Part shown: piece after piece, positions 7,502 through 29,994 of the stretch
Numbering within the stretch: the first letter of the stretch is position 1
How the letters are laid out: each line of letters starts with the position of its first letter
Source of the DNA: Candidatus Saccharimonadota bacterium
GTDB taxonomy: Bacteria > Patescibacteriota > Saccharimonadia > Saccharimonadales > Saccharimonadaceae
Length of the DNA stretch: 64,000 nucleotides
Assembly: GCA_017511925.1 (NCBI GenBank)
Contig: JAFWHS010000001.1
Location: 35 to 64,034 of the forward strand
Direction: 5' to 3'
Notes under the pieces: generated by a model
What the model was told of the DNA's origin: nothing
What the model saw: the letters and a program-made list of their open reading frames with translations, nothing else
Database searches by the model: none
Program-made: the position numbers and the translations under genes

Positions 7502-7517
7502 AGAAACGAGGTAATTT

Positions 7518-8226: not shown

Positions 8227-9720
8227 TTATTTTATACTAGCAGTTTTAACGATAAATTTCACCGATTCGGCATTTACCCCACCAAAACTCCGATATGAGC
8301 CAGCCGCTGTTACCATTTGGCGTGCATTCCTAGTAAACCCAGCTAAATCATTATTTGCAAAATTAACTAATTTATCAATTCCACTAGTTTTCAAAGTGCC
8401 AAGACCATCCCGTAAGGCTACAGAACCCGCATAAAGCTGCTCCTCTCCCTCGACTAGACTACCTAAGCCCACCGTGAGCGCCGGGGCTTTCTCGGCGATT
8501 GTAGATAGCCCCATGGCCAGTCCCACAGACCCTTCCGCCGCTGTCGCCACCCCTGTAGTGTAATTAATTAAGCCACTATAAAAATCGTTATAACTATTTA
8601 GCTGTGTTTTCAAGGTCGTAGTGCTCGTCGCATCACCACCAATCGCTGTCAAGAAAGCCGCCAATGTGTCCAAAGTTTCGCCGTAATTATCAATCGTTAG
8701 TGTAATCGGTGCGCTCAAACCATACGCCCCGCCATAGAGCGAAATTGCTCCTATTAGCGTCGCATTGGCATTTAATGTTGCGTTCGCTGAATCCAGCAGA
8801 GAATTAAATACGCTCGTCGCTCCCGTTGTTAAACTATCATTATATCCAGTTAGTTTTGTAAGACCTGTCGATAATTCTTCCGCCCCTGTTGCCGCACTTG
8901 CAACTCCCTCAGATAATGCTTCCGCTCCAGCATATAATTCTTTCGCTCCAGAGAGAGCCGATTCGATTCCATTGGTAAGCGTCCCCGCCCCGCTAATTAG
9001 CTGAATGGTCCCACTTTCGAGCTCATTCATCTGACTAATTAGCGAATCTACCTCTGTCAATTTCGATGTGTCTATCTCTGCGATCAACTCGTTCATCAGC
9101 ATTGTGTATGTCGTCCCAAGTGCAAAATCTTTCACATCCGCCTCTATTGCGAATTCCCCTGGTAAGAAATCCGTTCCTAAATCTTCATTTGCCCCTAGTA
9201 CTCCATACCCCATCACTAGATAATCACCATTTTCGCTAACGATTTTCCCATTCGTGAGTTTTATATTACTAAATTTTGTTTTATCTAACTGCGCCCCAGT
9301 TACCGCCACGAATGGTATTTTTTTACCTTGATAACTTGCCGTTGCATCATAATTAAACACGATTTTTACTCGGCCTGTTTTGCCGGCTATTTCTGTTGCG
9401 CTCACTTCTGTTCCATCCAAATAATATCGCACTTTCATTTCAAACGGCAAATTCTCATTTCCACTGTAGAGCGTACTCCCAATAAAAGTACTTTTCGTCG
9501 CCCCATCAGCCCCTGCCATTACATATACAGTTTCGTTTTTGCTCCCCAGTGTTCCGCCAAAATTTACATTAGATAGATTGTTCTCCATCGCTAGCGCTCT
9601 CGTTTCAGCCAGCGTCGGCGCTTCCTCGGCTCTCGCCCTCATTTCGCTTGCTACCATCATCCCCGCACCGCCAAGTACTGCAAGCGTCAGCAATCCCCCA
9701 TAAATCACTTGTTTCTTCAT
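8227..9720 (-). CDS. secreted/anchored protein with X-X-X-Leu-X-X-Gly heptad repeats (YhgE/Pip-like, MMPL-associated)
   Basis: 497 aa; N-terminal signal/TM segment; central repeats (LISGAGTLTNGIESALSGAKELYAGAEALSEGVASAATGAEELSTGLTKL); 4-nt ATGA overlap with the upstream MMPL gene. Confidence 0.55.
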   Translation of the reverse strand: MKKQVIYGGLLTLAVLGGAGMMVASEMRARAEEAPTLAETRALAMENNLSNVNFGGTLGSKNETVYVMAGADGATKSTFIGSTLYSGNENLPFEMKVRYYLDGTEVSATEIAGKTGRVKIVFNYDATASYQGKKIPFVAVTGAQLDKTKFSNIKLTNGKIVSENGDYLVMGYGVLGANEDLGTDFLPGEFAIEADVKDFALGTTYTMLMNELIAEIDTSKLTEVDSLISQMNELESGTIQLISGAGTLTNGIESALSGAKELYAGAEALSEGVASAATGAEELSTGLTKLTGYNDSLTTGATSVFNSLLDSANATLNANATLIGAISLYGGAYGLSAPITLTIDNYGETLDTLAAFLTAIGGDATSTTTLKTQLNSYNDFYSGLINYTTGVATAAEGSVGLAMGLSTIAEKAPALTVGLGSLVEGEEQLYAGSVALRDGLGTLKTSGIDKLVNFANNDLAGFTRNARQMVTAAGSYRSFGGVNAESVKFIVKTASIK

Positions 9721-11795
9721 TTTTTACTTCCTTTCGTTAATTTTTTCATCCCTAGAGTTGTGCGAATAATCAAGGGGTCAGCTAATACCAATAGTGGCGG
9801 TAAGAATAATGGCACCGTTATTACCGAAAGCACCGCTCCACGCGCCATCAGCATCGTTAGTGATGAAATCATATCCGCCTGAGAGTATACTGCCACCCCT
9901 ACCGTCGCTGCAAATAACACCGCCCCCGATACGATAATCGACGGAATTGATGTTTCGAGCGCTACTCTCGCCGCTTCTTTTTTATCTAATCCATCCAACC
10001 GCTCCCCCTTATATCTCGTTGTCATCAAAATCGCATAGTCCACCGTCGCCCCAAGCTGAATCGTACTAATACAAATTGGCGCAATAAACGAGAGCGACTG
10101 CCCCATAAAATACGACAGCCCGATGTTCACGAAAATCGTCGTCTCTATCACCGCAATCAAAATCACCGGCAGTGACAAAGAGCCAGTCACGATTAAAATA
10201 ATCACAAAAATTACCACGATCGATACTGAGTTTACTGTCGCAAAGTCCGTCGCCGTCACCCCTATCATATCTTGAGTCAGCGCCGCCTCACCGACTAGCA
10301 GCGCCGATTTGTCATATTTCTTCAAAATCTCGTTAATCTGATTAATCTGCTCCGCCATCTCGTCCGTCGCCGTAGAATACTCCGAAATCGCAAGCGACAT
10401 CTCCCATTTGTCTGATTTCAAAACCTCCGCCACCCCTTCCGGCAACATCTCTACTGACACATTCTCACCCAGCAGACTCTCGAGATTTAGTACCGTCTTT
10501 ATCCCGTTTACCTCTTTCAATTCCTCAGTCATCGCCGTCGCCTCCGCCTGTGGCAAACCTGCATCTGAGAGAATCATATGGACATTGGATAACCCAAAAT
10601 CCTCCTCCAATTTCTTATTTGCCACTGCAAAATCCATTGTCTGCGGCAATCCGTCGCTTAGGGTATAATACACATTTTCATTCGCTTTCTGATAAGCGTA
10701 GAGAAACGGCGGTATTATCGTTACGAAAACCACCAGTAGTACAGGGGCAAACTTCACGATTTTGCTAGACACGTGCCTAAAATTCGGCAAAATCAACTTA
10801 TGGTTGCATTTCTGGAGCGCCTTATCAAATGTCAAAATTAGCGCCGGCAGCACCGTCACCGCTCCAAGTACTCCTAGTATTACTCCCTTTGCCATTACTA
10901 GCCCTAGATCAATACCTAGTGTAAACGACATAAAACAGAGCGCAATAAACCCTGCCACCGTTGTCGCCGACGACCCCACCACTGAGCGTAGTGTCGCCTT
11001 GACCGCTTTCTCCATCGCAATCTCAGAGTCTTTCTTTCGTTTTAGATACTCTCGGTACGAATGCCAGAGAAAAATCGAATAATCCATCGTCACTGCGAGT
11101 TGCAAAATTGCCGACAATGCCTTCGTGATATAAGAAATCTCTCCGAATATTACATTTGTCCCCATGTTAATCAAAATCATTATCCCAATTGACGCCAAAA
11201 ACAACACCGGTATCAACCAGTTATCCAGTAGCACCAACATCACAATCAGCGCCAACACCACCGCAATAATCACATAAAACACCTCTTCCTTCTCTGATAA
11301 TTCGCGTAAATCCGTAATAAACGCCGACATTCCCGATACGTAAATATGCCTATCTATCAGTCCTCGGATTTCTTTTACTGCCGTAACCGTCTCGTCTGCA
11401 CTTGACCCTGTATCAAAAAACACCGCAATGATCGATTCATCGCCCTTCACTACCTTTTCATAGATTTCGTCTGGCAGTATCTCTGGCGGAATCCCCGCCC
11501 CCTCTAGGCTACCTAGTCCCAAAACTGTATCTACATGTCGAACATCGCGGATTTTTTCTTCTAGCTTTGCTTGTTCAGCGAACGGTAAATCCTCTGTAAT
11601 CACCATCGAAAACGCCCCTTTTCCAAAGTTCTCTAACAGTTCATTCTGACCAATTACTGTGTCCGTTTCACTTGGTAAATAATTCAACATATCATAGTTC
11701 ACTCTTGTCGCAAAAGATCCAATCACAGACGGTATCAAAAGTAATAGCGCTACTGTCAGAATCCATTTCCGATATTTAACCACAAATCTTCCCAT
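9717..11795 (-). CDS. MMPL/RND-superfamily membrane transporter
   Basis: 692 aa; two blocks of about 5-6 TM helices separated by soluble loops; typical MMPL layout. Confidence 0.7.
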   Translation of the reverse strand: MGRFVVKYRKWILTVALLLLIPSVIGSFATRVNYDMLNYLPSETDTVIGQNELLENFGKGAFSMVITEDLPFAEQAKLEEKIRDVRHVDTVLGLGSLEGAGIPPEILPDEIYEKVVKGDESIIAVFFDTGSSADETVTAVKEIRGLIDRHIYVSGMSAFITDLRELSEKEEVFYVIIAVVLALIVMLVLLDNWLIPVLFLASIGIMILINMGTNVIFGEISYITKALSAILQLAVTMDYSIFLWHSYREYLKRKKDSEIAMEKAVKATLRSVVGSSATTVAGFIALCFMSFTLGIDLGLVMAKGVILGVLGAVTVLPALILTFDKALQKCNHKLILPNFRHVSSKIVKFAPVLLVVFVTIIPPFLYAYQKANENVYYTLSDGLPQTMDFAVANKKLEEDFGLSNVHMILSDAGLPQAEATAMTEELKEVNGIKTVLNLESLLGENVSVEMLPEGVAEVLKSDKWEMSLAISEYSTATDEMAEQINQINEILKKYDKSALLVGEAALTQDMIGVTATDFATVNSVSIVVIFVIILIVTGSLSLPVILIAVIETTIFVNIGLSYFMGQSLSFIAPICISTIQLGATVDYAILMTTRYKGERLDGLDKKEAARVALETSIPSIIVSGAVLFAATVGVAVYSQADMISSLTMLMARGAVLSVITVPLFLPPLLVLADPLIIRTTLGMKKLTKGSKK

Positions 11796-12888: not shown

Positions 12889-12940
12889 TATGACGGCCAT
12901 GCTCTGCCATTTTTACCTCTGTTATGGTATAATAACTCTA

Positions 12941-14599
12941 ATGAAAGTCAAGCCGATTGCGGAACAAAAACAAGGACAAGGCGAACAGCCATTACTTAGA
13001 TATGTTTTGTATGCTCGCAAATCTTCCGAAGATGTCGGCTCACAAGCTAAATCACTTCCAGACCAAATCGCAGATTGTCTGAAATATGCCGAGGATAAAG
13101 GTATTGTCGTCGTAAACACATTGAAAGAATCGCATTCGGCGAAAATTTCTGGTAAACGCCCAGTTTTCACTCAAATGTTAAAAGACATTGAAGCTGGAAA
13201 ATACGACGGCATCTTATCTTGGCATCCAGACCGTTTAGCCCGTAATTCACTCGAAGCCGGAATGATAGTTGATATGGTGGATAGTGATAAGATTAAAGAC
13301 CTAAAATTCCCGACACTAGAATTTACGAACGATTCAAGCGGTAAACTACTCTTAAACATTATGTTTGCGATGTCTAAGCAGTATTCAGAACATTTAAGCG
13401 AGAGCGTTCAGCGCGGTGTTGATTCTAATCTTGCGCAAGGTAAATCTGGTGGCGTGCCAAAATGGGGGTATATTCGCGACGAGATAACCGGACATTACAA
13501 ACCAGATGAAAACTTTGACCTAGTAAAGCGCGGTTTGGAAATGTATATCGAGGGGTATAGCCAACGCGATATTATTAAGTTTTGGCGCGAGCATGACGTT
13601 CATCGTATGACGAAGCTAACGCGCAGAAACAAAAATGTTCGCAAGACCACTATTTACAGTAGCGAATCACCAATTAGTACAATTCTAAACGATCCATTTT
13701 ATTACGGCGTTCTCGTTCAAGGCGGTCAGAAAGTAGATTTAAGAGAAATCCTGCCAGACTTTCAACCAATGCTTACTGAAGAGCAGTTTGAACAAATTCA
13801 AGCTCTCCGCCATAAAATTAAGAAGATCCCGACTGCTTCAGTTAAAGCCGAAAAGGACAAAGTATTCATTCCGTTTCGCCAATTCGTCAAATGCGGCATT
13901 TGCGGAAATTATATGCACGTAGCGCGTTCAACCGCCAGGAATGGAGATAAATTCCTTTACTTTCGTTGCGGAAATTCAGAATGTAGCCGTAAGCAAAAGA
14001 ATATCCGCGCACAGTATATCTTAAACGATATTTATGAAACCTTAGAAGCGCTCCATTTTACGAAGAAAGACGTAATAAAAATCCAAAACAGCTTAACTGA
14101 TTATATTAACATCCGCCATAACGAACTTATTGAGGAAAAATTGCGCGTAAGCGCCGCTATAAAGGCCAAGAAACGCCGCCAGGGCGAACTTTCACAAGCT
14201 TTCATAGACTTAGGTAGTGACGCGCCAAAAGAAGCGAAGAAGATGGTAAAAGAGCAATTAGAAGAATGTCGCGAAGATATTGCGTCGCTTCAAATTGAGC
14301 GCGATGAAATTAACAACAAGATCTTTGATCCAGACCAAGTTCAAGAAATTCTGGACGAGCTTACGAACCAGCTAGATTCCTTGAGCGACAAGATGAAATC
14401 CGGCGATTCTTGGCAAAAGGACCAATTAGCCCGAAATCTATTTACGAACCTAGAAATTAATAACAAAAAAGAGGTCTCTTACAGGGTAAAAAGACCTCTT
14501 GAATCATTGCTCTCTGGGCGTTTGACCGAGAAATCTCGGTCTGGTGAGCCGGGTGGGACTCGAACCCACGACACCAAGCTTAAGAGGCTCATTGTCTAA
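12941..14599 (+). CDS. large serine recombinase (resolvase domain + recombinase domain + zinc ribbon + coiled coil)
   Basis: It has YVLYARKSSED (catalytic Ser), HPDRLARN, and CGICGNYM...FRCGNSEC (zinc ribbon). I prefer the ATG at 12941 (TGGTATAAT ends 7 nt upstream); the track starts at 12890. The last 19 codons overlap a tRNA 3' half. Confidence 0.85.
   Translation: MKVKPIAEQKQGQGEQPLLRYVLYARKSSEDVGSQAKSLPDQIADCLKYAEDKGIVVVNTLKESHSAKISGKRPVFTQMLKDIEAGKYDGILSWHPDRLARNSLEAGMIVDMVDSDKIKDLKFPTLEFTNDSSGKLLLNIMFAMSKQYSEHLSESVQRGVDSNLAQGKSGGVPKWGYIRDEITGHYKPDENFDLVKRGLEMYIEGYSQRDIIKFWREHDVHRMTKLTRRNKNVRKTTIYSSESPISTILNDPFYYGVLVQGGQKVDLREILPDFQPMLTEEQFEQIQALRHKIKKIPTASVKAEKDKVFIPFRQFVKCGICGNYMHVARSTARNGDKFLYFRCGNSECSRKQKNIRAQYILNDIYETLEALHFTKKDVIKIQNSLTDYINIRHNELIEEKLRVSAAIKAKKRRQGELSQAFIDLGSDAPKEAKKMVKEQLEECREDIASLQIERDEINNKIFDPDQVQEILDELTNQLDSLSDKMKSGDSWQKDQLARNLFTNLEINNKKEVSYRVKRPLESLLSGRLTEKSRSGEPGGTRTHDTKLKRLIV
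14542..14590 (-). pseudogene. 3' half of a split tRNA-Lys(CUU)
   Basis: rc = GAGCCTCTTAAGCTTGGTGTCGTGGGTTCGAGTCCCACCCGGCTCACCA. This covers the anticodon loop, 3' anticodon stem, variable loop, T arm, 3' acceptor strand and CCA. There is no 5' half adjacent. Confidence 0.85.
14580..14590. repeat. 11-bp direct repeat TTAAGAGGCTC (left junction of E2)
   Basis: Identical to 21122-21132; corresponds to the anticodon loop plus the 5' anticodon stem of the split tRNA. Confidence 0.85.
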
Positions 14600-14662
14600 T
14601 TATGAATATTTACTAAATTAACAGATAAAACAAGTCATCAAATATATTCACAAATATGCCCC

Positions 14663-14685
14663 GCCACCTTATTTTGCCACCTTAC
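14663..14685 (+). repeat. tandem GCCACCTTA(T/C) motifs near the E2 left end
   Basis: GCCACCTTAT-TTT-GCCACCTTAC; the same arrangement occurs at 20983-21004. Confidence 0.5.
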
Positions 14686-14690
14686 AACAT

Positions 14691-14717
14691 AAAAAAGCAC
14701 CCTTTCTGGTGTTTTTT
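14691..14717 (-). terminator. terminator downstream of tRNA-Lys
   Basis: AAAAAAGCACC-CTTTCT-GGTGTTTTTT; on the minus strand the T-run follows the stem immediately 3' of the tRNA. Confidence 0.45.
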
Positions 14718-14725
14718 GGTGATTT

Positions 14726-14802
14726 TGGTGAGCCGGGAGAGACTCGAACTCTCAACACCCTGCTTAAGAGGCAGGTGCTCTAACCAGTTGAGCTACCGGC
14801 CC
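14726..14802 (-). tRNA. tRNA-Lys (anticodon CTT), intact, with encoded CCA
   Basis: rc = GGGCCGG TA GCTC AACTGGTTA GAGC A CCTGC CTCTTAA GCAGG GTGTT GAGAG TTCGAGT CTCTC CCGGCTC A CCA. All four stems pair, with one G-U in the acceptor stem. Confidence 0.9.
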
Positions 14803-14910
14803 AAAACCCTACACATATTATACCACTTATCTGTAAAAAATGGAAGAGAAAAAACACAAATGCTCAAAGGGCCCCTTTTAAAAGAGGCCCTTTAATAGGA
14901 AAAATAAGAA

Positions 14911-16020
14911 TTAACTTAAAATTAATTTACCAAGTTTTGTTGATGCCATCCGCTCACATTCAGAATTCGCGTGTTGATATATCCTCAATGTCATTTCAAG
15001 CGTAGCATGCCCTAAAATACTCTGGCAAGTCTTCGGATCAACACCCTCATCACGCATAAAACATGCCGCCATATGACGAAGTGCATGGATCTTAATATGT
15101 GGCAACCCTGCACGCTTTGCTATATTCTGAAAGTCCCTATAAAAGTTTCTCGGTGCTATAGGAGTGCCATTTCTAGTTTGGAAAATTAACCCACTTGCTC
15201 CAGGAACAAATCGTTCTTTTAAAATACCGATTAGCCATTCATTTAAAGGCAAAGTTCTATCACTTTTATCCGTCTTTAACTCACCAACTCGAGGTCGATT
15301 ATCAATGCTAACAATTTGTTGCTTTATATGAATACGCTCGTTGGAGAAATCAACATCTTCCCAACGAAGGCCTAACACCTCGCCACGCCTTAAACCATAA
15401 TTTGCCATCAAAGCATAAGCTGCATAATAAGGACTCGTATTTTTGGCCTCGGCTAAAAATTTTCTTAACTGTTCTTTATTCCAAACAACAGGCTCTTTAG
15501 GTTTAATTGTTTTAACTTTGTAATCTCTTGCAGGATTGTTGAGGACATATTTGTGTTTCTTTGCACTAGTCAACATAGATGATAGGGCTTTTTTAGTAGC
15601 ACGCGCTTGATGTTTTGAATGTTTTTTAATTAATTTAAAAAGTCTCTCCACATCGTTCACATCAAGATTAGCAAGCTTTTTCTTACCTAATATAGGCAAA
15701 ATATACTTTTTATATAGTCTCTTATATAACTCTACCGTAGTCGGGCGTAGGCCAACATCTTCATCACTAATCTCTTCTAACCAACATTCGTAAAACTTCT
15801 CGACAGTTATACCTGCCCCCATTGTGATCTCACCTCTATCTCGCTGCGCTATGCGTTGTGCTAGTTGTTTCCTGGCCTCTTCTTGAGTCCTGCAACAGAT
15901 ATCTTGCATGACTTTATGTTCTCCAGTTGGCAACACCACAGTATATCGTGCAGCCCAACGACCATCCTTGCGTTTACTAATTGAACCAGATCCTCGTGGT
16001 CCTCTTTTTGTTTTACCCAT
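14911..16020 (-). CDS. tyrosine recombinase / phage-type integrase
   Basis: 369 aa; N-terminal SAM-like domain; C-terminal LRRGEVLGLRWEDV, HALRHMAA, LGHATLEMTLRIYQH (R..HxxR..Y catalytic pattern). Confidence 0.85.
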   Translation of the reverse strand: MGKTKRGPRGSGSISKRKDGRWAARYTVVLPTGEHKVMQDICCRTQEEARKQLAQRIAQRDRGEITMGAGITVEKFYECWLEEISDEDVGLRPTTVELYKRLYKKYILPILGKKKLANLDVNDVERLFKLIKKHSKHQARATKKALSSMLTSAKKHKYVLNNPARDYKVKTIKPKEPVVWNKEQLRKFLAEAKNTSPYYAAYALMANYGLRRGEVLGLRWEDVDFSNERIHIKQQIVSIDNRPRVGELKTDKSDRTLPLNEWLIGILKERFVPGASGLIFQTRNGTPIAPRNFYRDFQNIAKRAGLPHIKIHALRHMAACFMRDEGVDPKTCQSILGHATLEMTLRIYQHANSECERMASTKLGKLILS

Positions 16021-16021
16021 T

Positions 16022-16444
16022 TTAATATCCTCCTATTCCGGCCATCTCTCTAGCCTCATTAACCTTTTCTTCTAAAAAATTATTCAATTCAACAACAGGG
16101 ATCAATCTTCGTCCTCCTAGCTTAAAAGAAGGTAACTCATTTGCGTAAATAAGATCATATACCAAATTCCTTCCTATGCCTAAATAATTTGCGGCTTCTC
16201 TTACTCCCACTGCTCCTTTATTCCTAAAGCATATAACATTACCTTTATCAAACAACATGCTCATATCCCTATTATTGCGCGCTTTGACTATCACGTCAGC
16301 CCCTATAATGGCATTTTCTTCTGAAGGGGTGGCGAGAATATCTTTTTTATTACCCAAGCTCTCAAATAACGAGTGCATGTAGCTTGTACCGTCATTTCTG
16401 ATGTTGTTTTCCAACCTATTAGTTAATAGTAAATTCTTCATCAT
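16022..16444 (-). CDS. excisionase-family helix-turn-helix protein
   Basis: The C-terminal VREAANYLGIGRNLVYDLIYANELPSFKLGGRRLIPVVELNNFLEE is a MerR/Xis-type HTH. The start is chosen at the ATG with AAGGAGG 6 nt upstream; the track starts at 16468. Confidence 0.6.
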   Translation of the reverse strand: MMKNLLLTNRLENNIRNDGTSYMHSLFESLGNKKDILATPSEENAIIGADVIVKARNNRDMSMLFDKGNVICFRNKGAVGVREAANYLGIGRNLVYDLIYANELPSFKLGGRRLIPVVELNNFLEEKVNEAREMAGIGGY

Positions 16445-17591
16445 CTTTATCCTCCTTATTATCCTCATAATGAACTAAGCTTGTTCCTATATTATTTATG
16501 GTCTCCCCAATAATTTGAATATACGGATATTCAACCTTGCTATCCAATAATACAAAGAGTTCTTTCTTCGTCCGACTCCACAACCTACTATCGTTATATT
16601 TGCAAAAGGCTTTTTTCACTTTATTTAAGCCGCATTCTCCAGTTAATATCGAAAAACCTAATTTGGCAAAAGACTTTTGCGGAGAATTACTCATCAATAA
16701 ACTCTCAATAACCTCTAATTGATGATCTGGCCCTAGCGGTTCAATCTCTGTTCCAATTGTTTTCACTAACCTTCCCCAATATTTCATCAGGAATTTACGA
16801 GCCAGGTCTGCAGAAAACATATCTTTAAAAGTAATCCTATCTGTCGATTCATTTAAAGATTTAAGATCAACCTTTAGCTGCTTCGTGTTTTGTTCTTGAA
16901 CCTCTACCCTAACAACCTGCAAAAGATTAGCATCCTGTAAACCAATAAATAATTTTTCTATATCACACAAAGAGTCAGATGTATTACGAATTTCTGCAAT
17001 TTTATCATAGACAATTAATTGTCTCCCTTTTGGCCCCTCCCTATAAAGATCCCCCACTCTATACTGAACTTGAGCATACCTAGAGCCTATTCTATGCTCT
17101 GACCGCTCCAAAATACTTGCTAAAGTATTCGTTGATGCTCGTCCTGGCAATATTATATTTTTACCAAAGTCCACCCTTCTTACAATAGCTCTCCGAATAT
17201 CATCCTGCGTAATTTTATTAGGTAGATTTAACAATTTTAACTTACTATACAATTTACCTACCACATCTTCAAATTGATCTTCCCCTACCTCCACAATATT
17301 ATTTCCATATAGAAACTTTGGTACGGACATTGTGATACGATAAGCAGAACAATATAGACGACGATCTCCCTTCTTTTTTAATGGATTAGGATAATAAACA
17401 TAATTAACTTGTGGTAAATATTCTCCTGGGACAATTTCACCAACTGGCCAACACAATTTTATATTTTGATATCCAACAAAACTTCCTTTTCCATCGCTAG
17501 TTTTCTTATTTGTGATTTCAACTGTAGTCTCAAAGTCCTTTTCATCTAAACGTTTTCCTATTGTTATTTCTAATGTGACCGTATCGATCAT
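16419..17591 (-). CDS. putative rolling-circle replication initiator (phage/plasmid gene II/X-like)
   Basis: 390 aa. The N-terminal MIDTVTLEI and ITMSVPKFLYGNNIVEV resemble the MIDxLxL... and SxPKxLxGxN blocks I recall from the II/X Rep family. The assignment is from memory only. Confidence 0.45.
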   Translation of the reverse strand: MIDTVTLEITIGKRLDEKDFETTVEITNKKTSDGKGSFVGYQNIKLCWPVGEIVPGEYLPQVNYVYYPNPLKKKGDRRLYCSAYRITMSVPKFLYGNNIVEVGEDQFEDVVGKLYSKLKLLNLPNKITQDDIRRAIVRRVDFGKNIILPGRASTNTLASILERSEHRIGSRYAQVQYRVGDLYREGPKGRQLIVYDKIAEIRNTSDSLCDIEKLFIGLQDANLLQVVRVEVQEQNTKQLKVDLKSLNESTDRITFKDMFSADLARKFLMKYWGRLVKTIGTEIEPLGPDHQLEVIESLLMSNSPQKSFAKLGFSILTGECGLNKVKKAFCKYNDSRLWSRTKKELFVLLDSKVEYPYIQIIGETINNIGTSLVHYEDNKEDKDDEEFTIN

Positions 17592-17639
17592 GATGTTCCC
17601 TTTCCTCGGCCAAATACCGAGATTAAAATTAATAATGAT

Positions 17640-17655
17640 CGATAATCGATTATCG
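17640..17655. promoter_or_regulatory. 16-bp perfect palindrome upstream of the rep-like gene
   Basis: CGATAATCGATTATCG lies 49 bp upstream of the Rep-like start, followed by GTACGTAC (17659-17666). Confidence 0.4.
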
Positions 17656-17805
17656 TTTGTACGTACTCAACTAATTCTTATTACGACTTATTAACATTCC
17701 GTTTTCAAATTCGTTTTTTAATTAGTCTACCCCAATTATCTAGCACATCAAAAAAACGGTCTGCAGAAGTAATATTACTTAACAAAGATAAACTTCGATT
17801 AACCC

Positions 17806-18303
17806 CTAGAAATTAGGGTCGAATCGATATCCAACATTTCGTTCCACTGGTATAAAATTATGCTCAATTGCTCCAGTCGCCGCATGAAAAGTTCTACGCA
17901 TCTCTGTCAAATAGCGTGTAAGAGTCTTTTCATCTATTCTATTCCTCGATTCAAATAATATCCCTAGTAATTCCCTACTATTTAGGGCTCTCCCATTATC
18001 ACAATAAGCTGCCACCAAGGCCACCGCAATAATAGCCTTAGCACATGAAAAATCACACGACTTATTGTCATAATATACCTGTTTATCATCAAACGAAAAC
18101 TTAGTATCACCAACCTGTGTTACCGGCAAACTAGTCTCTACCTTAAAAACATCATTCCTACTAACAATCTGAATTATTCTTTCACCATCTATATTTATCT
18201 CGGTATCAGAAATAACTTTACCATTATTATAGTTAACATGCACATCAGCTGGCACCACTATAATTCGTATATTACTCTCAACATGGAAACTTTTTTCTGC
18301 CAT
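17806..18303 (-). CDS. winged-helix (OmpR/PhoB C-terminal type) DNA-binding protein
   Basis: The C-terminus SRELLGILFESRNRIDEKTLTRYLTEMRRTF....PVERNVGYRFDP is Trans_reg_C-like. I prefer the ATG at 18303, directly after the upstream stop; the track uses a GTG at 18330. Confidence 0.55.
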   Translation of the reverse strand: MAEKSFHVESNIRIIVVPADVHVNYNNGKVISDTEINIDGERIIQIVSRNDVFKVETSLPVTQVGDTKFSFDDKQVYYDNKSCDFSCAKAIIAVALVAAYCDNGRALNSRELLGILFESRNRIDEKTLTRYLTEMRRTFHAATGAIEHNFIPVERNVGYRFDPNF

Positions 18304-18305
18304 AG

Positions 18306-18704
18306 TCAAATAGTCTCCACTTTTACCCACCTACCATCATTACCGACAAGAGAACGATCCAATATACCGATATCTATAAGCACTACATACTTTGTCGACA
18401 ATACGGAACCTCCCCGAAAAAGACTGCGCAGAAACTTTTCAGAATCAACAATAAGATCAGGGTTCTCGTCCTCCATATCATCACGACTCACAATAAATGG
18501 CTCAAGATCCTCAATGACCTGAGCATCATCAAACAACCCCTTTGCCTCTATTGTCAAACTTCCATTTTTATTTGCAAATACGCCTATAATAGTCCTTCCC
18601 AATCTGTTCTTTAAAGAAGATAGGAGGTTATTATCTAAACATTTTACAAAATAGATCCCTTCCCCATCTATACCACTAACAATTCTATCATCTAGACTGT
18701 CCAT
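18306..18704 (-). CDS. hypothetical protein
   Basis: 132-aa ORF, co-directional and contiguous with the winged-helix gene. Confidence 0.45.
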   Translation of the reverse strand: MDSLDDRIVSGIDGEGIYFVKCLDNNLLSSLKNRLGRTIIGVFANKNGSLTIEAKGLFDDAQVIEDLEPFIVSRDDMEDENPDLIVDSEKFLRSLFRGGSVLSTKYVVLIDIGILDRSLVGNDGRWVKVETI

Positions 18705-18921
18705 ATAACATCATCTTACCAACCCTATCAGACAAAGTCAATACAGGGGTGGCAGAATATTCATAGACACGCTCAAAATTATCCCAAGAGAAATTAGGTG
18801 GCGAGGAATAATCATATAATAGCCCTTCAGTATATTAATGTATATCAGAAAAGCGCAAGAAAAGTACATTGCCGTATTGGTGGTGCGTATTGGAAAAAAT
18901 ATAAAATAATGTATAATTGTA

Positions 18922-19061
18922 GTGTCTAGTTACATAAAATCAGGTAGGGAATACGGGCGACTGCCGTATGCAATAGTAATTGCCCATGCGTGAGACATCC
19001 GTGTCTCAGTCGGGCAATCCGCCTATCTGATTAATGTGGCTAGACACCCAACACGGGTGTC
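18922..19061 (+). other. highly structured non-coding region (candidate 5' UTR riboregulator, ncRNA or single-strand origin)
   Basis: It starts ~5 nt after TGTATAAT (18910-18917). A ~25-bp imperfect helix pairs 18922-18948 with 19022-19047 and encloses hairpins ATACGG/CCGTAT (18951-18969) and ATTGCCC..TGAGACA-TCCG-TGTCTCA..GGGCAAT (18979-19018). An alternative hairpin GACACCC-AACAC-GGGTGTC (19043-19061) competes with the long helix. Confidence 0.5.
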
Positions 19062-19118
19062 TCACTTATTCTAAGAGAGTCCTCGTTTGGTTATTAATAC
19101 TTAAAATAAGGAGGATGT

Positions 19119-20048
19119 GTGAGAAACACTACAAGAGAAGGGGACACGCCGAATCGTGGAAGCGATAAAAAACCACGAGGGGAAAACACAACAAATAACA
19201 AGAGTAAAACTACAGGCAGCACCCTCAAGGCTGGTTTCGTCATGAGCATTATAGCTATAGCATTATGTTGGGTTCCAGCGATTGGTTTGGTGCTATCTTT
19301 GATTGCAATTGGTTTAATGCTACCAGAGATAATCAAGGCAATAAAGATTAAGAAGCTCCCAATAGAGGGGTCTGGCAAATTTATAGCTGGTTGTATTATG
19401 TCGGTAATTACTGTGGTGATCGGCCTTATCATAACTATTAGTGTGTTTGGACCAAAACCATCTTCAATACCGAAAGAAAAGCCTCAATTTGAACAAGAAT
19501 ATAGTTCTCTCAAAAAATTGGACCTAAACGGCGTAATAGTAAGTGAGGCTTGCGCCAAACTTCGTGAGGCTGGTTGGAGAGTAAGGGGAGTTGGCAATGG
19601 TTATATGGGCGAAAAAAGTGAGGAAAGCGATTGTAGCGATACTGTACATAAAGTTTCAACTGTAAATTATTCTGATAAAAAATATTCAGATTATGATGGT
19701 AGCGAAAATCATGATTATGAGAGTGTATTTATTGAGTTTGTAAGTAATAATACGAGTAGTTCAAGCTCATCTACTGAGTCGTCGAATAATAGCACTAGCT
19801 CTTCAAGTAACACGAGTTCGTCGAATAATACAAGCTCGTCCTCTTCAAATAGTATGTGCAAAGATGACTACCAGAAGGATTTAGATGCAGCAAAGGCGAG
19901 CTATGAGTATAACGAACAGATATATAACACCTATAAAAATATGTCGGGTGTAGATGCAGATACAGTTAAATCCTATAAGGACGCTCTAGATATATCTAAG
20001 GCTTCTTTAGATACTGCACAAAAGCTCTATGATACTTATTGCAAATAA
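19119..20048 (+). CDS. membrane protein with TM hairpin and Ser/Asn-rich low-complexity linker
   Basis: 309 aa; GTG start with AAGGAGG 4-5 nt upstream; two TM helices (DUF4190-like), a soluble domain, then SNNTSSSSSSTESSNNSTSSSSNTSSSNNTSSSSSNS. Confidence 0.55.
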   Translation: MRNTTREGDTPNRGSDKKPRGENTTNNKSKTTGSTLKAGFVMSIIAIALCWVPAIGLVLSLIAIGLMLPEIIKAIKIKKLPIEGSGKFIAGCIMSVITVVIGLIITISVFGPKPSSIPKEKPQFEQEYSSLKKLDLNGVIVSEACAKLREAGWRVRGVGNGYMGEKSEESDCSDTVHKVSTVNYSDKKYSDYDGSENHDYESVFIEFVSNNTSSSSSSTESSNNSTSSSSNTSSSNNTSSSSSNSMCKDDYQKDLDAAKASYEYNEQIYNTYKNMSGVDADTVKSYKDALDISKASLDTAQKLYDTYCK

Positions 20049-20066
20049 TTGAATATAGGAGAAAAA

Positions 20067-20489
20067 ATGAGTAATAATTATAAAGAATCCACGGTGGTGG
20101 TGGCGCCGAAAATAATTCTAATAATAGCAACTACGCTCTGTGCGGCTAGCGGGTTTATACCTTGGTTAGATATTGGTGGGGACAATGGTCCTCTGGTTCC
20201 GATTTATATTATATCTGGATTAATTCCACTAATTTTGAATATCATAGCCTTAATAATAAAGCGTCGTGGCGTGAGCTTAGCTTCCAATATATTAGGTATC
20301 ATTGGTGGCTTGATAGCTATGCTATATGTTGCATTTTTCTTCTTGGGTTCAAGTATGTATGCTAGTAATTTCATTTTTAACCATCTAGCTCTGGGCGTTT
20401 GGATAGCCCTAGTCTCTGGGCTAATAATGTTTGTCGTATCGATTGTGTCAATAGTGAAAGATAAAAAGAAAAGTCATGTAGCGGAATAA
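20067..20489 (+). CDS. small integral membrane protein (about 4 TM helices)
   Basis: ATG at 20067 with AGGAG 5 nt upstream; the track starts at a TTG at 20049. Confidence 0.55.
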   Translation: MSNNYKESTVVVAPKIILIIATTLCAASGFIPWLDIGGDNGPLVPIYIISGLIPLILNIIALIIKRRGVSLASNILGIIGGLIAMLYVAFFFLGSSMYASNFIFNHLALGVWIALVSGLIMFVVSIVSIVKDKKKSHVAE

Positions 20490-20508
20490 TTGGAATAAAA
20501 TGCGTTTT

Positions 20509-20544
20509 AAAGCCCCTCATAGCCATCTGGAGGGGCTTTTGTTG
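20509..20544 (+). terminator. rho-independent terminator
   Basis: AAAGCCCCTC-ATAGCCATCTG-GAGGGGCTTTTGTTG. Confidence 0.6.
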
Positions 20545-20599
20545 TATAAGTAGTTTGTAGAAAATTGATTTAAGGCATACGCTACGCTATAATGATGGC

Positions 20600-20767
20600 A
20601 TGGCAAACAATAGTTTTAATCCACTATACCTATCAAATGAAGAAACAAGTGATTTTGAAGCCTCTATGCGGGAGGCCGAACTTTTTGACGACACAATGAA
20701 ATTGGAAAGAGAGTGGAAAGTAAGGAGAGGGTTGATAGACGAAGATGAAGAAGATCTGTTCTTATAG
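20600..20767 (+). CDS. small acidic 55-aa ORF
   Basis: MANNSFNPLYLSNEETSDFEASMREAELFDDTMKLEREWKVRRGLIDEDEEDLFL; TATAAT (20588-20593) lies 6 nt upstream; below the track cutoff. Confidence 0.3.
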   Translation: MANNSFNPLYLSNEETSDFEASMREAELFDDTMKLEREWKVRRGLIDEDEEDLFL

Positions 20768-20982
20768 TGTTAAGGAGGCCTAAAAATCCCGCAAAGGCTT
20801 GTGTATGACTTAAATTGTTTTATAAATACTGCTTTGAAATATAAGTTGATATTACAAATGATAGCATATATTACATAGATTAACTTTTTGGGGGAGGGGG
20901 GATTTTCTACCCCACCCCCTGCCCCCTCCCCTAGCAAGGGGCGGGGGATCAAAACTCTAGATATTCCTACGATCGCCATTTT

Positions 20983-21004
20983 GACACCTTATCTGCCACC
21001 TTAT
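20983..21004 (+). repeat. tandem G(A/C)CACCTTAT motifs near the E2 right end
   Basis: GACACCTTAT-CT-GCCACCTTAT, in the same orientation as 14663-14685. Confidence 0.5.
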
Positions 21005-21121
21005 AAAATAAATCAACTCAAATAACATAGACAGCACAAACAACTATTTACTTGAAATTTCAAGAATAAAAAACTATAGAAATAGAGGCCACAAAAAATC
21101 GTCATTTTCTGACGAATATAA

Positions 21122-21132
21122 TTAAGAGGCTC
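21122..21132. repeat. 11-bp direct repeat TTAAGAGGCTC (right junction of E2)
   Basis: Identical to 14580-14590. Confidence 0.85.
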
Positions 21133-21160
21133 GTGCTCTAACCAGCTGAGCTACCGGCCC
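21122..21160 (-). pseudogene. 5' half of the split tRNA-Lys(CUU)
   Basis: rc = GGGCCGG TA GCTC AGCTGGTTA GAGC A CGAGC CTCTTAA, after which the tRNA sequence stops. It complements 14542-14590 into a full cloverleaf. Confidence 0.85.
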
Positions 21161-21249
21161 GCTCACAGTCCACTAAAGCGAACTCCTATAATTATACCAC
21201 AAAAACCTTCATCTTACAATATAAAAAATCATATCCCAATAAATATCTT

Positions 21250-22553: not shown

Positions 22554-24071
22554 TTATTTTGCATACTCCACTGCACGTGTTTCACGAATTACATTCACTT
22601 TTATTACGCCTGGATAGCTCATCGTAGCCTCTATCTTATTTGCGATATCTCGCGCTAATTTAAGAGCTGATAAATCATCAATGGATTTAGGCTCCACAAT
22701 CACACGTACTTCACGTCCAGCCGAGATTGCATAAGCCTTGTCAATCCCCGGGAATGAAGTAGCAATATTTTCAAGATCACGCATTCTTTCTGCAAAATTT
22801 TCTGCTGAAATATTTCTAGCCCCAGGCCTTGCCGCACTCATCGCGTCCACGATCTTAATAATCACCGCTTCAGGAGTCGTGGGCTCAATATCGTTATGAT
22901 GCGCTGCAATTGCATGCACAATTTCATCTGGCATACCATACTTCTTTGCCAACTCTGCGCCGATATCTGCATGCTTGCCTTCAATCTTATGTGTCACTGC
23001 CTTACCGATATCATGCATCAATGCTGCAGTCTTCGCCACACGCTTGTCAGCCCCAATCTCCTCCGCAATCATGCCAGCCACATGCGCCATTTCGATAGAA
23101 TGAAGAAGTACATTCTGCCCATAAGAAGTACGGAATTTAAGTTCACCCAAAAGATGTACTAATTCGCGTGGGATTCCTACCAATCCTACTTCGCGCACAG
23201 CATCTTCACCAGCCATGACTACTTCCTTTTCAATTTCTTTTTCACCTTTCGCCACCGCTTCTTCAATAGATGCCGGGTTAATTCGCCCATCTTTCATTAA
23301 GCGTTCCAGAGCGTATCTTGCTACCTGCCGACGAATCGGATCAAAAGAGGAAAGTACCACCATCCCAGGCGTATCGTCCACCATAATATCTACACCCGTA
23401 GCTCTTTGCAAAGCCTGGATATTACGACCTTCTTTACCAATAATCCTGCCCTTCATATCATCATCAGGCAACTTAAGTGCCGTCACAGTTCTATCTGCCG
23501 TCACTTCGGAAGACATCCTCTCCATTGCCGTCAAAAGTATCGCCTGTGCAGTTTCATCAATATCATGCTTAATTTCTTTTTGTTCTTTCACCACCAAACC
23601 AACCAAATCCTGCTTGATGTCGTTTTCCGTCATCTTCATCAACTTTTCACGCGCTTCTTGCTTAGAAAGTCCCGCAATTCGCTCCAATTTTTCATGCTGT
23701 TTTTCACGAATCGCCCGCACCTCACCTTTAAGCTCTTCAATTTCTCTTTCTTTGCGCGTTAATTTTTCAGTCTTTTTTTCTAGATTATCTAACTTTGCAT
23801 CAAGCGCCATCTCTCTCTCCGCCAAACGATTTTCCGTACGCTTCCATTCCTTACGACGTTCACTCTCTTCAGCTTGACCCTTGCTGGCCAATTCCGCTGC
23901 TTCCTGCTTAGCATTCAAAACGATATCCGAAGCCTCACGTTTAGCTTTTCTCACCAAATCATCAGCCTTATCCTTACCGCCATTCTCATTGTGTTTATTA
24001 TATGCAAAAATCCCGCCTGCACCAGCAACTATACCTGCCACTGCAGCGATAATTGGGATAGCAATTTCCAT
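22554..24071 (-). CDS. rny: ribonuclease Y
   Basis: 505 aa; N-terminal TM, coiled coil, KH domain (IIGKEGRNIQALQRATGVDIMVDD) and HD domain (HSIEMAHVAGMIA...MHDIGKA). Confidence 0.9.
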   Translation of the reverse strand: MEIAIPIIAAVAGIVAGAGGIFAYNKHNENGGKDKADDLVRKAKREASDIVLNAKQEAAELASKGQAEESERRKEWKRTENRLAEREMALDAKLDNLEKKTEKLTRKEREIEELKGEVRAIREKQHEKLERIAGLSKQEAREKLMKMTENDIKQDLVGLVVKEQKEIKHDIDETAQAILLTAMERMSSEVTADRTVTALKLPDDDMKGRIIGKEGRNIQALQRATGVDIMVDDTPGMVVLSSFDPIRRQVARYALERLMKDGRINPASIEEAVAKGEKEIEKEVVMAGEDAVREVGLVGIPRELVHLLGELKFRTSYGQNVLLHSIEMAHVAGMIAEEIGADKRVAKTAALMHDIGKAVTHKIEGKHADIGAELAKKYGMPDEIVHAIAAHHNDIEPTTPEAVIIKIVDAMSAARPGARNISAENFAERMRDLENIATSFPGIDKAYAISAGREVRVIVEPKSIDDLSALKLARDIANKIEATMSYPGVIKVNVIRETRAVEYAK

Positions 24072-27307: not shown

Positions 27308-27314
27308 AATATAC

Positions 27315-29991: not shown

Positions 29992-29994
29992 AAC

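Follow-up and report, generated by a model that had tools for sequence, protein, structure and literature searches.

A small integrative element that splits a host tRNA-Lys(CUU) gene and carries its own copy: probable tRNA-dependent integration in a Saccharibacteria genome

How does a tRNA-Lys(CUU) gene come to lie in two halves, 6,531 bp apart, around an insert that carries a complete tRNA-Lys(CUU) gene of its own, and what does the arrangement mean for the host? The initial annotation of the window (a 64,000-nt stretch of Saccharibacteria contig JAFWHS010000001.1) read it as an integrase element that inactivates the host copy, complements it in cis and is thereby costly to lose. We followed up this reading, and found all of its coordinates, the size of the insert and the position of the internal tRNA, adjoining the tyrosine integrase gene 135 bp inside the left junction, to be correct (Table 1).

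ARAGORN called only two tRNAs in the whole window, the element-borne tRNA-Lys(ctt) (14726-14802, minus strand) and a tRNA-Ser(gct) (40282-40374, minus strand), and none at 14542-14590 or 21122-21160. The Rfam tRNA model detected neither half, even at E<=10. Neither junction of the element rebuilds a tRNA gene, as had been claimed. The 11-mer TTAAGAGGCTC occurs exactly twice, once in each half, and deleting 14591-21132 in silico yielded the anticipated canonical 77-nt tRNA-Lys(ctt), with 4/4 stems paired. This joined sequence is identical (77/77 nt) to the intact tRNA-Lys(ctt) of four other Saccharibacteria (L048, L056, L066 and L087) and differs by 1-2 nt from the native gene of about ten other relatives; the native gene lies downstream of the RNase Y gene, in the same position as in the window, and the L056 copy scored 67.6 bits with the Rfam model. 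Related genomes thus have the uninterrupted form of this locus, and the element was absent from all 80 related RNase Y loci. A -10-like box (TATAAT) like that upstream of the orphan 5' half also precedes the intact native tRNA in several relatives. An assembly join at 14590 or 21122, a caveat raised initially, is excluded, since both junctions recur in same-species contigs of several independent samples (99.9-100% identity overall); further same-species contigs have the gene order of the window. The split of the host tRNA-Lys(CUU) is confirmed as a real feature, correct at every coordinate.

Table 1. Features of the split tRNA locus and the integrated element, in window coordinates
Feature	Position	Strand	Remarks
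Host tRNA gene terminator	14469..14500	-	now 3' of the orphan 3' half, within the tail of the serine recombinase ORF
Orphan 3' half, host tRNA-Lys(CUU)	14542..14590	-	loop, 3' anticodon stem GCTTG, variable loop, T arm, acceptor 3' strand, CCA
Left copy of 11-nt repeat	14580-14590		inside orphan 3' half
7-nt loop, likely overlap region	14580-14586		within left repeat copy
Integrated element	14591..21121	.	6,531 bp between the two core copies
Two direct repeats TAAGGTGGC	14663..14684	-	13 nt start to start
Hairpin with T-runs on both strands	14692..14717	.	would terminate the element tRNA transcript
Intact element tRNA-Lys(CUU)	14726..14802	-	ARAGORN; 69.1 bits with the Rfam tRNA model; anticodon stem CCTGC/GCAGG
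Extended -10 box TGGTATAAT	14817..14825	-	14 nt upstream of element tRNA
Terminator-like hairpin 3' of int	14864..14895	-	
Tyrosine integrase	14911..16020	-	Pfam Phage_integrase 2.5e-29; phrog_1 1.1e-68
HTH_17 protein	16022..16468	-	HTH_17 2.8e-12; phrog_66, excisionase/regulator
Rolling-circle-type replication initiator Rep	16419..17591	-	Pfam Phage_CRI / G2P N-terminal, 2.1e-9
Two small ORFs (174 aa, 132 aa)	17806..18704	-	
Two cargo ORFs (309 aa, 146 aa)	19119..20489	+	
Hairpin and T-run, terminator-like	21099..21115	-	begins 6 nt after orphan 5' half; -7.3 kcal/mol
Orphan 5' half, host tRNA-Lys(CUU)	21122..21160	-	acceptor 5' strand, D arm, anticodon 5' stem CGAGC, loop CTCTTAA
Right copy of 11-nt repeat	21122-21132		inside orphan 5' half
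Promoter-like site of host tRNA-Lys(CUU)	21191..21219	-	TTGTAA-17-TATAAT with TG; still upstream of orphan 5' half

The left flank, as the initial annotation missed, is not plain host DNA: a large serine recombinase gene (12890-14599) reads through the orphan 3' half and probably belongs to a second element at the same tRNA. A GIY-YIG/Schlafen-type helicase is also encoded in this flank. The tRNA locus is a hotspot in other genomes as well, with short displaced 3'-end fragments of the classical type lying downstream of it in L034, L048, L066 and L100.

Besides its tRNA, the insert has genes for a tyrosine integrase, an Xis-like protein of the HTH_17 family and a Rep of the rolling-circle type. 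The integrase combines an N-terminal SAM-like domain with a lambda-type catalytic domain, and the Arg, Lys, His and Tyr positions that do not vary among 19 homologues (R212, K249, H312, R315, H338 and Y348) presumably correspond to the tyrosine recombinase catalytic set. Judging by its family matches, the HTH_17 protein is likely an excisionase or directionality factor. Rep gave no tblastn match in phage or plasmid collections and no match in the PDB. The 174-aa ORF has a weak, sub-threshold match to Trans_reg_C (winged-helix), and the two small ORFs possibly encode a regulator; the two cargo ORFs matched no Pfam family and no significant PHROG family, and their translations, read by eye, suggest a 309-aa protein that is hydrophobic towards its N-terminus and Ser-rich in its tail, and a hydrophobic, multi-pass protein of 146 aa. 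A domain search of the element found no FtsK/TraB-type translocase. 'Lysogeny' in the strict sense is not established here, as no phage structural genes were detected in the element. The hairpin at 21099..21115 forms the element end, on the P' side of attP. In the sister elements this place is taken by a comparable hairpin with another sequence, followed by C(T/C)CTGTT, where the window has CTCTATT.

These sister elements are six in number (6.5-9 kb across the family), share the split-tRNA layout, have integrases 44-75% identical and carry unrelated cargo. Their common order runs 5' half, core, terminator, cargo, HTH_17 gene, int, tRNA-Lys(ctt), terminator, paired repeats, core and 3' half, with the HTH_17 gene immediately upstream of int in 6/7 elements (in L094, three other genes lie between the two and two extra genes precede the tRNA). 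In all seven, the anticodon of the carried tRNA is that of the destroyed gene. Among the sister cargo are genes of defence or toxin type (methylases, helicases, CdiA_C), and L100 encodes FtsK_gamma-domain proteins. As had been noted, the element tRNA of the window is intact and diverged from the host tRNA: the acceptor stems are identical, but 2+2 nt differ in the anticodon stem, 4 in the T stem and one each in the D loop and the variable loop. A TATAAT box stands at the same distance from the tRNA in 6/7 elements (not L190), and a hairpin analogous to that of the window follows it in 6/7, L190 having a T-run only. The paired repeats, candidate arm-type integrase binding sites, vary in sequence between elements, both copies changing together in most. 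The seven element tRNAs are under structural constraint, with 99.3% of cells paired and double compensatory changes in 9/21 pairs, a pattern matched by 0/500 shuffles; since their stems are kept through compensatory changes, the layout is a family trait and not an accident. A split host tRNA accompanied by a spare one is thus a conserved trait of a family of small elements.

The sister elements also narrow down the exchange point. The two copies of the shared 11 nt, at which the halves had initially been joined, stand, yet the exchanged segment proved shorter: the core at the 3'-half junction of L100, L186 and L095 reads GAAACTCTTAA or GAACCTCTTAA and differs from the host's GAGCCTCTTAA, which places the exchange within the loop CTCTTAA. 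By this comparison the shared att segment is the 7-nt anticodon loop, not the whole 11-mer. With the crossover in the anticodon loop and the anticodon stem on either side, the site falls into what we take to be the anticodon-loop sublocation class.

We propose, with a probability of about 0.8, that the insert is a small integrative element with tRNA-dependent integration in a Ca. Nanosyncoccus-like, ruminant-gut Saccharibacteria genome. Its tyrosine integrase would recombine attP with the anticodon stem-loop of the host tRNA-Lys(CUU) gene, the two sites sharing only the 7-nt anticodon loop, plus at most 4 flanking nt in the window copy; the circle junction is predicted to read …GACAATGAGCCTCTTAATTATATTCG…. 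Because such an attP would lack the 3' part of the tRNA, integration would leave an orphan 5' half, which would keep the host promoter and have its transcript capped by the element terminator, and an orphan 3' half. The element would compensate with a complete tRNA-Lys(CUU) under its own promoter and terminator, placed within the int-attP cassette between int and the arm-type repeats. Precise excision, with restoration of the host gene, is expected from the joint action of Int and the HTH_17 protein. Complementation in cis, as first suggested, is the most economical reading, since empty sites exist in relatives and the design recurs in six other elements. We further infer a single host copy of tRNA-Lys(CUU) that the cell needs, an element tRNA that is both expressed and charged, an active integrase and excisionase, and a role of the paired repeats as arm sites. 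Some bacteria decode AAG with a modified tRNA-Lys(UUU) alone, and this counts against the gene being essential. Counted in favour of the proposal are the 45% share of AAG among the Lys codons of host genes and the small tRNA complement of complete Saccharibacteria genomes, only 42-44 tRNAs (PMC8830319, PMC11737083), and mycobacteriophage experiments follow the same logic, viable integrants needing the phage tRNA (PMC10865867).

While the split, the lack of regeneration and the carriage of a cognate tRNA all held, the addiction-like reading is weak: precise excision by Int and Xis would rebuild the host gene at no cost, since the att sites share the whole anticodon loop, and the host would become dependent only through an imprecise deletion or once int, xis or att had decayed. 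It is possible, if doubtful, that such decay is under way and that the element, no longer actively mobile, is the immobilised remnant of one ancestral integration, a domesticated tRNA replacement on which the host now permanently depends. All same-species contigs of sufficient length (at least 7 samples) carry the element, these contigs yielded neither an excised circle nor an empty site, and in two copies (L011 and L195) a 1-nt indel splits the Rep ORF into 43+345 aa while int and the element tRNA remain intact, so the window's copy may no longer move. Against this, the window copy retains full-length int, HTH_17 and Rep genes and two intact cores, and the family has been mobile, since sister elements occupy other genomes with different cargo. 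This reading is about what one copy is today, and does not conflict with tRNA-dependent integration as its origin. We consider it unlikely that the cognate tRNA mainly serves some other end, such as replacing tRNA-Lys cut by anticodon nucleases (counter-defence) or adjusting decoding supply, with disruption of the host gene incidental and tolerated. The authors of PMC10865867 raise such a purpose themselves, and both the defence- and toxin-type sister cargo and the helicase of the left flank would suit it; however, the carried anticodon matches the destroyed one in 7/7 elements, AAG makes up no larger a share of Lys codons in element genes (38%) than in host genes (45%), and no anticodon nuclease was identified in the window.

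Could the locus be a misread classical island, with the tRNA at 14726-14802 the rebuilt or native gene and the halves older displaced fragments? The hotspot character of the locus and the displaced fragments in four genomes (L034, L048, L066 and L100) lend this some colour, but it is very improbable and already contradicted: the halves together equal the relatives' native tRNA base for base, empty-site relatives have one tRNA and nothing like the element tRNA or the 135-bp spacer, and tRNA and spacer move with int into different chromosomal contexts. Moreover, the covarying host anticodon stem cannot pair with strands of the element tRNA, the orphan 5' half runs directly into a terminator, and distant integrase relatives (28-39% identity), mostly classical, have a convergent tRNA 80-130 bp after int and not a co-directional complete one. 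Hardly credible is a split tRNA still in use, its halves transcribed separately and assembled in trans as in Nanoarchaeum equitans. Archaeal split tRNAs, including a tRNA-Lys(CUU), resemble the window in being split in the anticodon loop, and the orphan 5' half still has its promoter, now with a clean terminator behind it. Yet complementary trailer and leader sequences are missing (pairing the 40 nt that follow the 5' half with the 40 nt that precede the 3' half gives at best -5.7 kcal/mol, weaker than the shuffled mean of -7.3), the 3' half lies behind the element tRNA terminator with no promoter-like site, and we know of no archaeal-type splicing endonuclease pathway in bacteria.

Tyrosine integrase, tRNA target and int beside attP are shared with classical islands and prophages (Islander database, PMC4383910). 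Those regenerate the tRNA gene because the tRNA part is contiguous with the core, and a displaced fragment marks their far end, whereas the window element regenerates nothing and brings a complete, separate gene of its own. [quoted passage not shown] The named closest integrase homologues outside Saccharibacteria include many from Actinobacteria (Gordonia, Nocardia, Streptomyces, Amycolatopsis; 31-35% identity), and cultured oral Saccharibacteria were co-isolated with Actinomyces and Schaalia hosts (PMC8830319, PMC11737083).

The strategy itself is not new, contrary to what the initial annotation implied: Guerrero-Bustamante and Hatfull (mBio 2024, PMC10865867) described it as tRNA-dependent lysogeny in actinobacteriophages (Fionnbharth K4, cluster L, Cain K6, Gordonia CQ2/DL and Gaia X). 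They cite Lactobacillus johnsonii Lj965 as an earlier case, and PMC12429752 refers to its authors' earlier description of the mechanism in Sinorhizobium meliloti prophages similar to a Mesorhizobium phage. In these descriptions the target tRNA is reported or suspected not to be rebuilt and a cognate tRNA is carried, as here, by tailed prophages of other phyla. The actinobacteriophages share with the window a lambda-type tyrosine integrase, paired arm-type repeats, an attB inside a tRNA gene, an element tRNA with the anticodon of the destroyed gene and its own promoter, a minimal host tRNA set with lysine tRNAs as favoured targets, and a common core of only 8-17 bp, on account of which no tRNA is rebuilt. 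Experimental evidence exists for the mycobacteriophages, where the window element is known from its sequence. The actinobacteriophages differ further in their hosts (Actinobacteria), in being tailed phages of ~50-70 kb against 6.5-9 kb of rep-xis-int with no recognisable virion genes, and in their published targets (Lys-TTT, Ile2-CAT and Leu-CAA). In Fionnbharth the tRNA overlaps gene 37, away from int-attP, and BritBrat, a member of its integrase phamily, is only ~28% identical to the window integrase. A literature search returned no report of tRNA-dependent integration for Saccharibacteria or Patescibacteria. New here are the phylum, a carrier without recognisable phage genes, the compact int-tRNA-attP cassette and the CUU isoacceptor.

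ARAGORN recovered only two tRNA genes in the 64-kb window, the element's own tRNA-Lys(ctt) and a tRNA-Ser(gct) at 40282-40374(-), and neither ARAGORN nor the Rfam tRNA model, even at E<=10, detected a tRNA at either junction of the element, where the two orphan halves lie. The 11-mer TTAAGAGGCTC occurs in exactly two copies in the window, and in-silico removal of 14591-21132 yielded a 77-nt tRNA-Lys(ctt) with every stem paired. Empty sites were sought using the neighbouring RNase Y protein (22554-24071) as a query, which returned 80 loci (84-93% protein identity), nearly all of them labelled Candidatus Saccharibacteria or Ca. Nanosyncoccus MAGs and many of ruminant gut origin. An intact tRNA-Lys(ctt) lay inside the fetched flank in 21 of the 80, mostly downstream of RNase Y, as in the window; an integrase or Rep homologue was found in none (0/80). 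The native tRNA is identical to the joined halves at 77/77 positions in four relatives (L048, L056, L066 and L087) and 1-2 nt off in about ten others, demonstrating that the halves are a single native gene that has been interrupted; the L056 copy, identical to the joined sequence, scored 67.6 bits with the Rfam model. These results confirm the proposal of the initial annotation that a tRNA-Lys(CUU) gene is split in its anticodon loop: the deletion it suggested restores a canonical tRNA, and the uninterrupted gene it proposed to look for is present downstream of RNase Y in relatives. Its wider interpretation is supported only in part, as discussed below.

Same-species contigs were looked up by exact matches to the flanking CmpB, the integrase and the TetR gene. 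Several independent samples yielded contigs with both junctions (overall identity 99.9-100%), ruling out an assembly join, and further same-species contigs have the gene order of the window. All sufficiently long contigs carry the element, and no same-species empty site or excised circle was found among them. One copy, L011 (Logan unitig SRR12529295, 6,590 bp), corresponds to window 21151-14561, that is, to the element plus 30 nt of tRNA on either side. Its ends look like a graph branch at k=31, from which we infer only that the sample also contains an intact tRNA with the identical sequence; this tRNA sequence is common to several species, and the pattern was therefore not counted as excision. 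In L011 (3561-4732) and in a second, independent assembly, L195 (12128-13299), the Rep reading frame is broken into pieces of 43 and 345 aa, in L011 by what aligns as a 1-nt indel relative to the same gene in the window (16419-17591). Integrase and element tRNA are intact in both despite the split Rep, which suggests decay of the replication function in some populations.

The insert measures 6,531 bp (14591-21121). The parts of the element are listed in the table along the tRNA-sense (minus) strand, together with the reconstructed att sites and the neighbouring features. The orphan 5' half runs into TTATATTCG and then a terminator hairpin, and AT-rich arm DNA precedes the orphan 3' half. The only recognisable proteins are the integrase, the Xis-like protein and Rep, next to four or five ORFs without an assigned family. 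Arg, Lys, His and Tyr are invariant in 19 integrase homologues, and we take these to be the recombinase catalytic set. Pfam and PHROGs gave no capsid, tail, terminase or morphogenesis family in the element, and Rep had no match in phage, plasmid or PDB collections; nothing recognised here supports a phage nature of the carrier.

Table. Parts of the element in tRNA-sense order, reconstructed sites, and features of the flanks and of related loci
Feature	Position	Strand	Detail
Host promoter-like site, followed by orphan 5' half	21219-21191	-	first in order
Orphan 5' half	21122-21160	-	GGGCCGGTAGCTCAGCTGGTTAGAGCACGAGCCTCTTAA; acceptor 5' strand, D arm, 5' anticodon stem, loop
Hairpin with T-run	21115-21099	-	begins 6 nt after orphan 5' half
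Small ORFs, including two membrane-like proteins	19119-20489	+	no assigned function
Two small ORFs	17806-18704	-	between cargo ORFs and Rep
Rep, rolling-circle type	16419-17591	-	Phage_CRI 2.1e-9
HTH_17 protein, excisionase-like	16022-16468	-	2.8e-12
Tyrosine integrase, then own terminator	14911-16020	-	Pfam Phage_integrase 2.5e-29 and SAM-like N-terminal domain; phrog_1 1.1e-68
Extended -10 box of element tRNA	14817-14825	-	TGGTATAAT
Intact tRNA-Lys(ctt), then hairpin with T-run	14726-14802	-	69.1 bits (Rfam tRNA model)
Two direct repeats	14663-14684	-	TAAGGTGGC, 13 nt apart
Core, orphan 3' half, host terminator	after direct repeats	-	last in order
Orphan 3' half	14542-14590	-	GAGCCTCTTAAGCTTGGTGTCGTGGGTTCGAGTCCCACCCGGCTCACCA
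Predicted attP junction	reconstructed		contains TTAGACAATGAGCCTCTTAATTATATTCGTCAG
Predicted repaired attB with the species' own flanks	reconstructed		GTGAGCGGGCCGG…GAGCCTCTTAAGCTTGG…CACCAGACCGAGATT
Large serine recombinase	12890-14599	+	569 aa; Resolvase, Recombinase and Zn ribbon
Serine recombinase homologues	L048 13265-14818; L054 16219-17853; L072 13926-15581		
Duplicated tRNA 3' ends	L034 ~14370-14400; L048, L066 ~50 nt after tRNA; L100 11525-11549		
GIY-YIG and Schlafen-group-3 helicase protein	3247-4974	+	
DUF8370 protein, several family-less ORFs, MMPL transporter with TetR regulator	4994-11795		
Type IV secretion-like cluster	26087-34366	-	directly beside DnaJ and RNase Y
Defence-type genes at sister loci	L094 4273-8373; L188 1030-5276; L100 3247-5046; L186 3758-11823		

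The integrase belongs to a tight cluster of homologues (42-75% identity), all those known being from metagenome assemblies. Contigs were fetched for six of these homologues, five of which have the split-tRNA layout; those of the sixth, P0014 (L188 and L189), end too soon after int to show it. Every contig that is long enough has a common design, beginning with a tRNA-Lys 5' half that ends in GAGCCTCTTAA, a hairpin with T-run and a C(T/C)CTGTT motif, and continuing with 7-9 kb of variable cargo (including helicase/DUF2130; methylase/Band_7/Rep; and AAA_25/FtsK_gamma/CdiA_C/methylase) and then HTH_17 and int, with three other genes between in L094. Downstream of int are a TATAAT box and then, in the same direction as int, an intact tRNA-Lys(ctt) with a terminator behind it. 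Two direct repeats come next; they vary by element (e.g. AAGGTGTCA, AAGGTATCA and GTGTGTC), and their two copies match in most elements. The repeats lead into CTGTTA, usually a TTAGACnnT, then the core and finally the orphan 3' half. The spacer between tRNA end and loop measures 137-139 nt in six elements and is shorter, at 118 nt, in the seventh. The core beside the 3' half reads GAAACTCTTAA in L100 and L186 and GAACCTCTTAA in L095, and so differs from the host side, GAGCCTCTTAA; what attP and attB share is therefore the 7-nt anticodon loop, within which strand exchange must take place. Across the seven element tRNAs, 99.3% of the cells at paired positions are paired and 9/21 pairs show double compensatory changes, values equalled by 0/500 shuffles, indicating that these genes evolve as functional tRNAs.

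Defence-type genes are abundant at this locus. The sister elements or the DNA directly around them encode a large AAA_11/MTES_1575 helicase accompanied by DUF2130, an N6_N4 methylase alongside a ResIII helicase, and a CdiA_C toxin domain together with a DNA methylase. In L186, GmrSD, an EcoRI methylase, a reverse transcriptase and Fic lie on the far side of the 3' half.

Several other readings of the locus were weighed. If the halves were transcribed separately and assembled in trans, as in Nanoarchaeum, the trailer after the 5' half should pair with the leader before the 3' half; their best duplex, at -5.7 kcal/mol, is weaker than the average for shuffled sequences (-7.3 +/- 2.4), and the 3' half lies behind a terminator, making this arrangement unlikely. 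A classical island would have restored the tRNA at one junction, and what follows the 5' half is TTATATTCG and a hairpin, and what precedes the 3' half is AT-rich DNA. The classical layout is found among distant integrase relatives (28-39% identity; L103-L182, from soil and other JGI metagenomes), which served as an outgroup: most have a convergent tRNA (Ala, Ile, Arg, Val and others) 80-130 bp from int, and in others int follows a co-directional tRNA-Val or tRNA-Ala at a distance of ~130 bp. Both a classically rebuilt tRNA and a native pair of tandem tRNAs were considered and rejected.

Insertion of the 6.5-kb segment by the large serine recombinase to the left was considered and rejected. 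The ORF of this recombinase is convergent to tRNA-Lys and crosses both the terminator of the host tRNA and the orphan 3' half. The gene is located outside the repeats, however, and homologues (45-81% identity) occupy the same convergent spot beside an intact tRNA-Lys in three relatives (L048, L054 and L072), the ORF in L072 ending within the tRNA T arm. This adjacency is thus older than the tyrosine-integrase insertion and the read-through tail fortuitous, and the serine recombinase probably belongs to a second element docking at the 3' end of the same tRNA; integration by serine recombinases at tRNA genes has been called rare (PMC3218068). Leftward of it lie TetR, MMPL, genes without known function and the GIY-YIG/Schlafen-type helicase, and the genes at 3247-11795 may represent defence functions or cargo of the serine-recombinase island. 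The window contains no displaced 3' fragment of the tRNA as a marker of that island's far end. At several loci the intact tRNA or orphan half is closely followed by duplicated 20-25-nt 3' ends of tRNA-Lys(ctt), e.g. GAGTCCCACCCGGCTCACCA. These are scars of classical integrations that restore the 3' end, marking tRNA-Lys as a hotspot for several kinds of element. On the other side of the element, the type IV secretion-like cluster encodes PrgI-like and TraC-like proteins, a VirB4/TraG P-loop ATPase, a glucosaminidase and a family-less 1,137-aa protein, and matches the clusters, mostly without relaxase, reported for Patescibacteria (PMC12102498).

We then compared the element tRNAs with native ones. 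The window element tRNA differs from the native host gene at 10 positions, and its nearest sampled native tRNA (7 differences) is that of L037, from a more distant Saccharibacteria lineage, with which it has the anticodon stem CCTGC/GCAGG in common. Two other anticodon arms of the element type are CGGGC/GCCTG and CGTGG/CCTCG; the host arm is CGAGC/GCTTG. The L100 element tRNA equals the native tRNA of the L069 species base for base, from which we infer that element tRNAs were captured from Saccharibacteria. None of the element tRNAs has the anticodon stem of its target, and pair 29:41 is unlike the host's in 6/6 elements with both strands comparable. The element tRNAs of L094/L095 depart from the host tRNA at only four positions, each of them among the 10 of the anticodon stem (hypergeometric P = 1.6e-4), the L095 tRNA (8002-8078) being host-identical save for these changes (CGTGG/CCTCG), which give a U-U mismatch at the middle pair. 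Such divergence would be expected if the element tRNA must not be a substrate of its own integrase. Taken together, the elements may form a Saccharibacteria-wide family of small, apparently non-viral rep-xis-int elements built around a compact, portable cassette (int, promoter, tRNA-Lys(CUU), terminator, arm sites and core), whose tRNA was captured from other Saccharibacteria lineages and whose anticodon stem is kept different to escape its own integrase, a tentative reading to which we give roughly one chance in three. If true, the element would destroy its own attB, excluding rivals of the same specificity, and tRNA alleles would be swapped between species with minimal tRNA sets.

In the most likely mechanism, the tyrosine integrase inserts the element site-specifically into the anticodon stem-loop of the host tRNA gene. 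As attP contains no tRNA 3' part, the target is destroyed on integration, and the cognate tRNA in the cassette would make up for the loss. The host may need the disrupted tRNA, for which the evidence is indirect: AAG makes up 45% of Lys codons in host genes, complete Saccharibacteria genomes have 42-44 tRNAs only (PMC8830319, PMC11737083), and the element tRNA is intact in all seven elements. The addiction-like arrangement put forward in the initial annotation does not follow, because the loop is common to both att sites and the host gene should be restored by precise excision. A ratchet is the most that can be proposed: were int, xis or att to decay, the host would be left dependent on the element tRNA. 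Both the presence of the element in all sufficiently long same-species contigs and the breakage of Rep in two copies would fit such a ratchet.

These data extend tRNA-dependent integration beyond the tailed phages of Actinobacteria to Saccharibacteria (Patescibacteria/CPR), where it operates on apparently plasmid-like integrative elements. Island finders that seek a regenerated tRNA and a displaced fragment would probably miss or mis-bound such elements, and a tRNA census would assign the element's tRNA to the host. In evolutionary terms, they offer a concrete route for a foreign allele to replace a single-copy tRNA gene in a reduced genome. The int-tRNA-attP cassette (~1.6 kb from int start to core) is also a candidate site-specific integration tool for Saccharibacteria, and mycobacterial integration vectors likewise function only when carrying the phage tRNA (PMC10865867).

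The integrase is just 28-35% identical to phage integrases; a scan of IMG/VR with the integrase gave a single relative (28%), a profile scan of JGI metagenomes gave only relatives at <=39% identity and no family members, and two small 'Bacteriophage sp.' records from human faeces, with integrases at 28-32%, contain no tRNA. Many of the named closest cellular homologues outside Saccharibacteria are actinobacterial (31-35%). The rep-xis-int set resembles AICE backbones (PMC3218068), except that a recognisable translocase is lacking, no FtsK_SpoIIIE or TraB domain being found in the element's window ORFs. Our literature search found no report of tRNA-dependent integration in Saccharibacteria or Patescibacteria. 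The closest known system is tRNA-dependent lysogeny, in which a phage tyrosine integrase uses an attB in a tRNA gene with only ~8-17 bp in common, no tRNA is rebuilt, and viable lysogens require the phage-encoded cognate tRNA; the targets listed are tRNA-Lys-TTT, Ile2-CAT and Leu-CAA, for phages of Mycobacterium and Gordonia (Guerrero-Bustamante and Hatfull, mBio 2024, PMC10865867). That paper cites L. johnsonii Lj965 as a likely case elsewhere, and the authors of another state that in previous work they reported this mechanism in S. meliloti prophages resembling a Mesorhizobium phage (PMC12429752). The element has all four sequence-level defining features of this system, namely a tyrosine integrase (by Pfam, PHROGs and the invariant residues), an attB in a tRNA gene (the joined flanks are the host tRNA-Lys(ctt)), a short core without a rebuilt tRNA (an 11-nt repeat in the window copy, the 7-nt loop family-wide) and a cognate tRNA-Lys(ctt), present in the window element and the six sister elements whose contigs reach far enough. 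It differs in phylum, in its small rep-xis-int carrier, in the CUU isoacceptor and in the placement of its tRNA inside the int-attP cassette. The element is real and conserved, and is of a kind already described, with some architectural differences.
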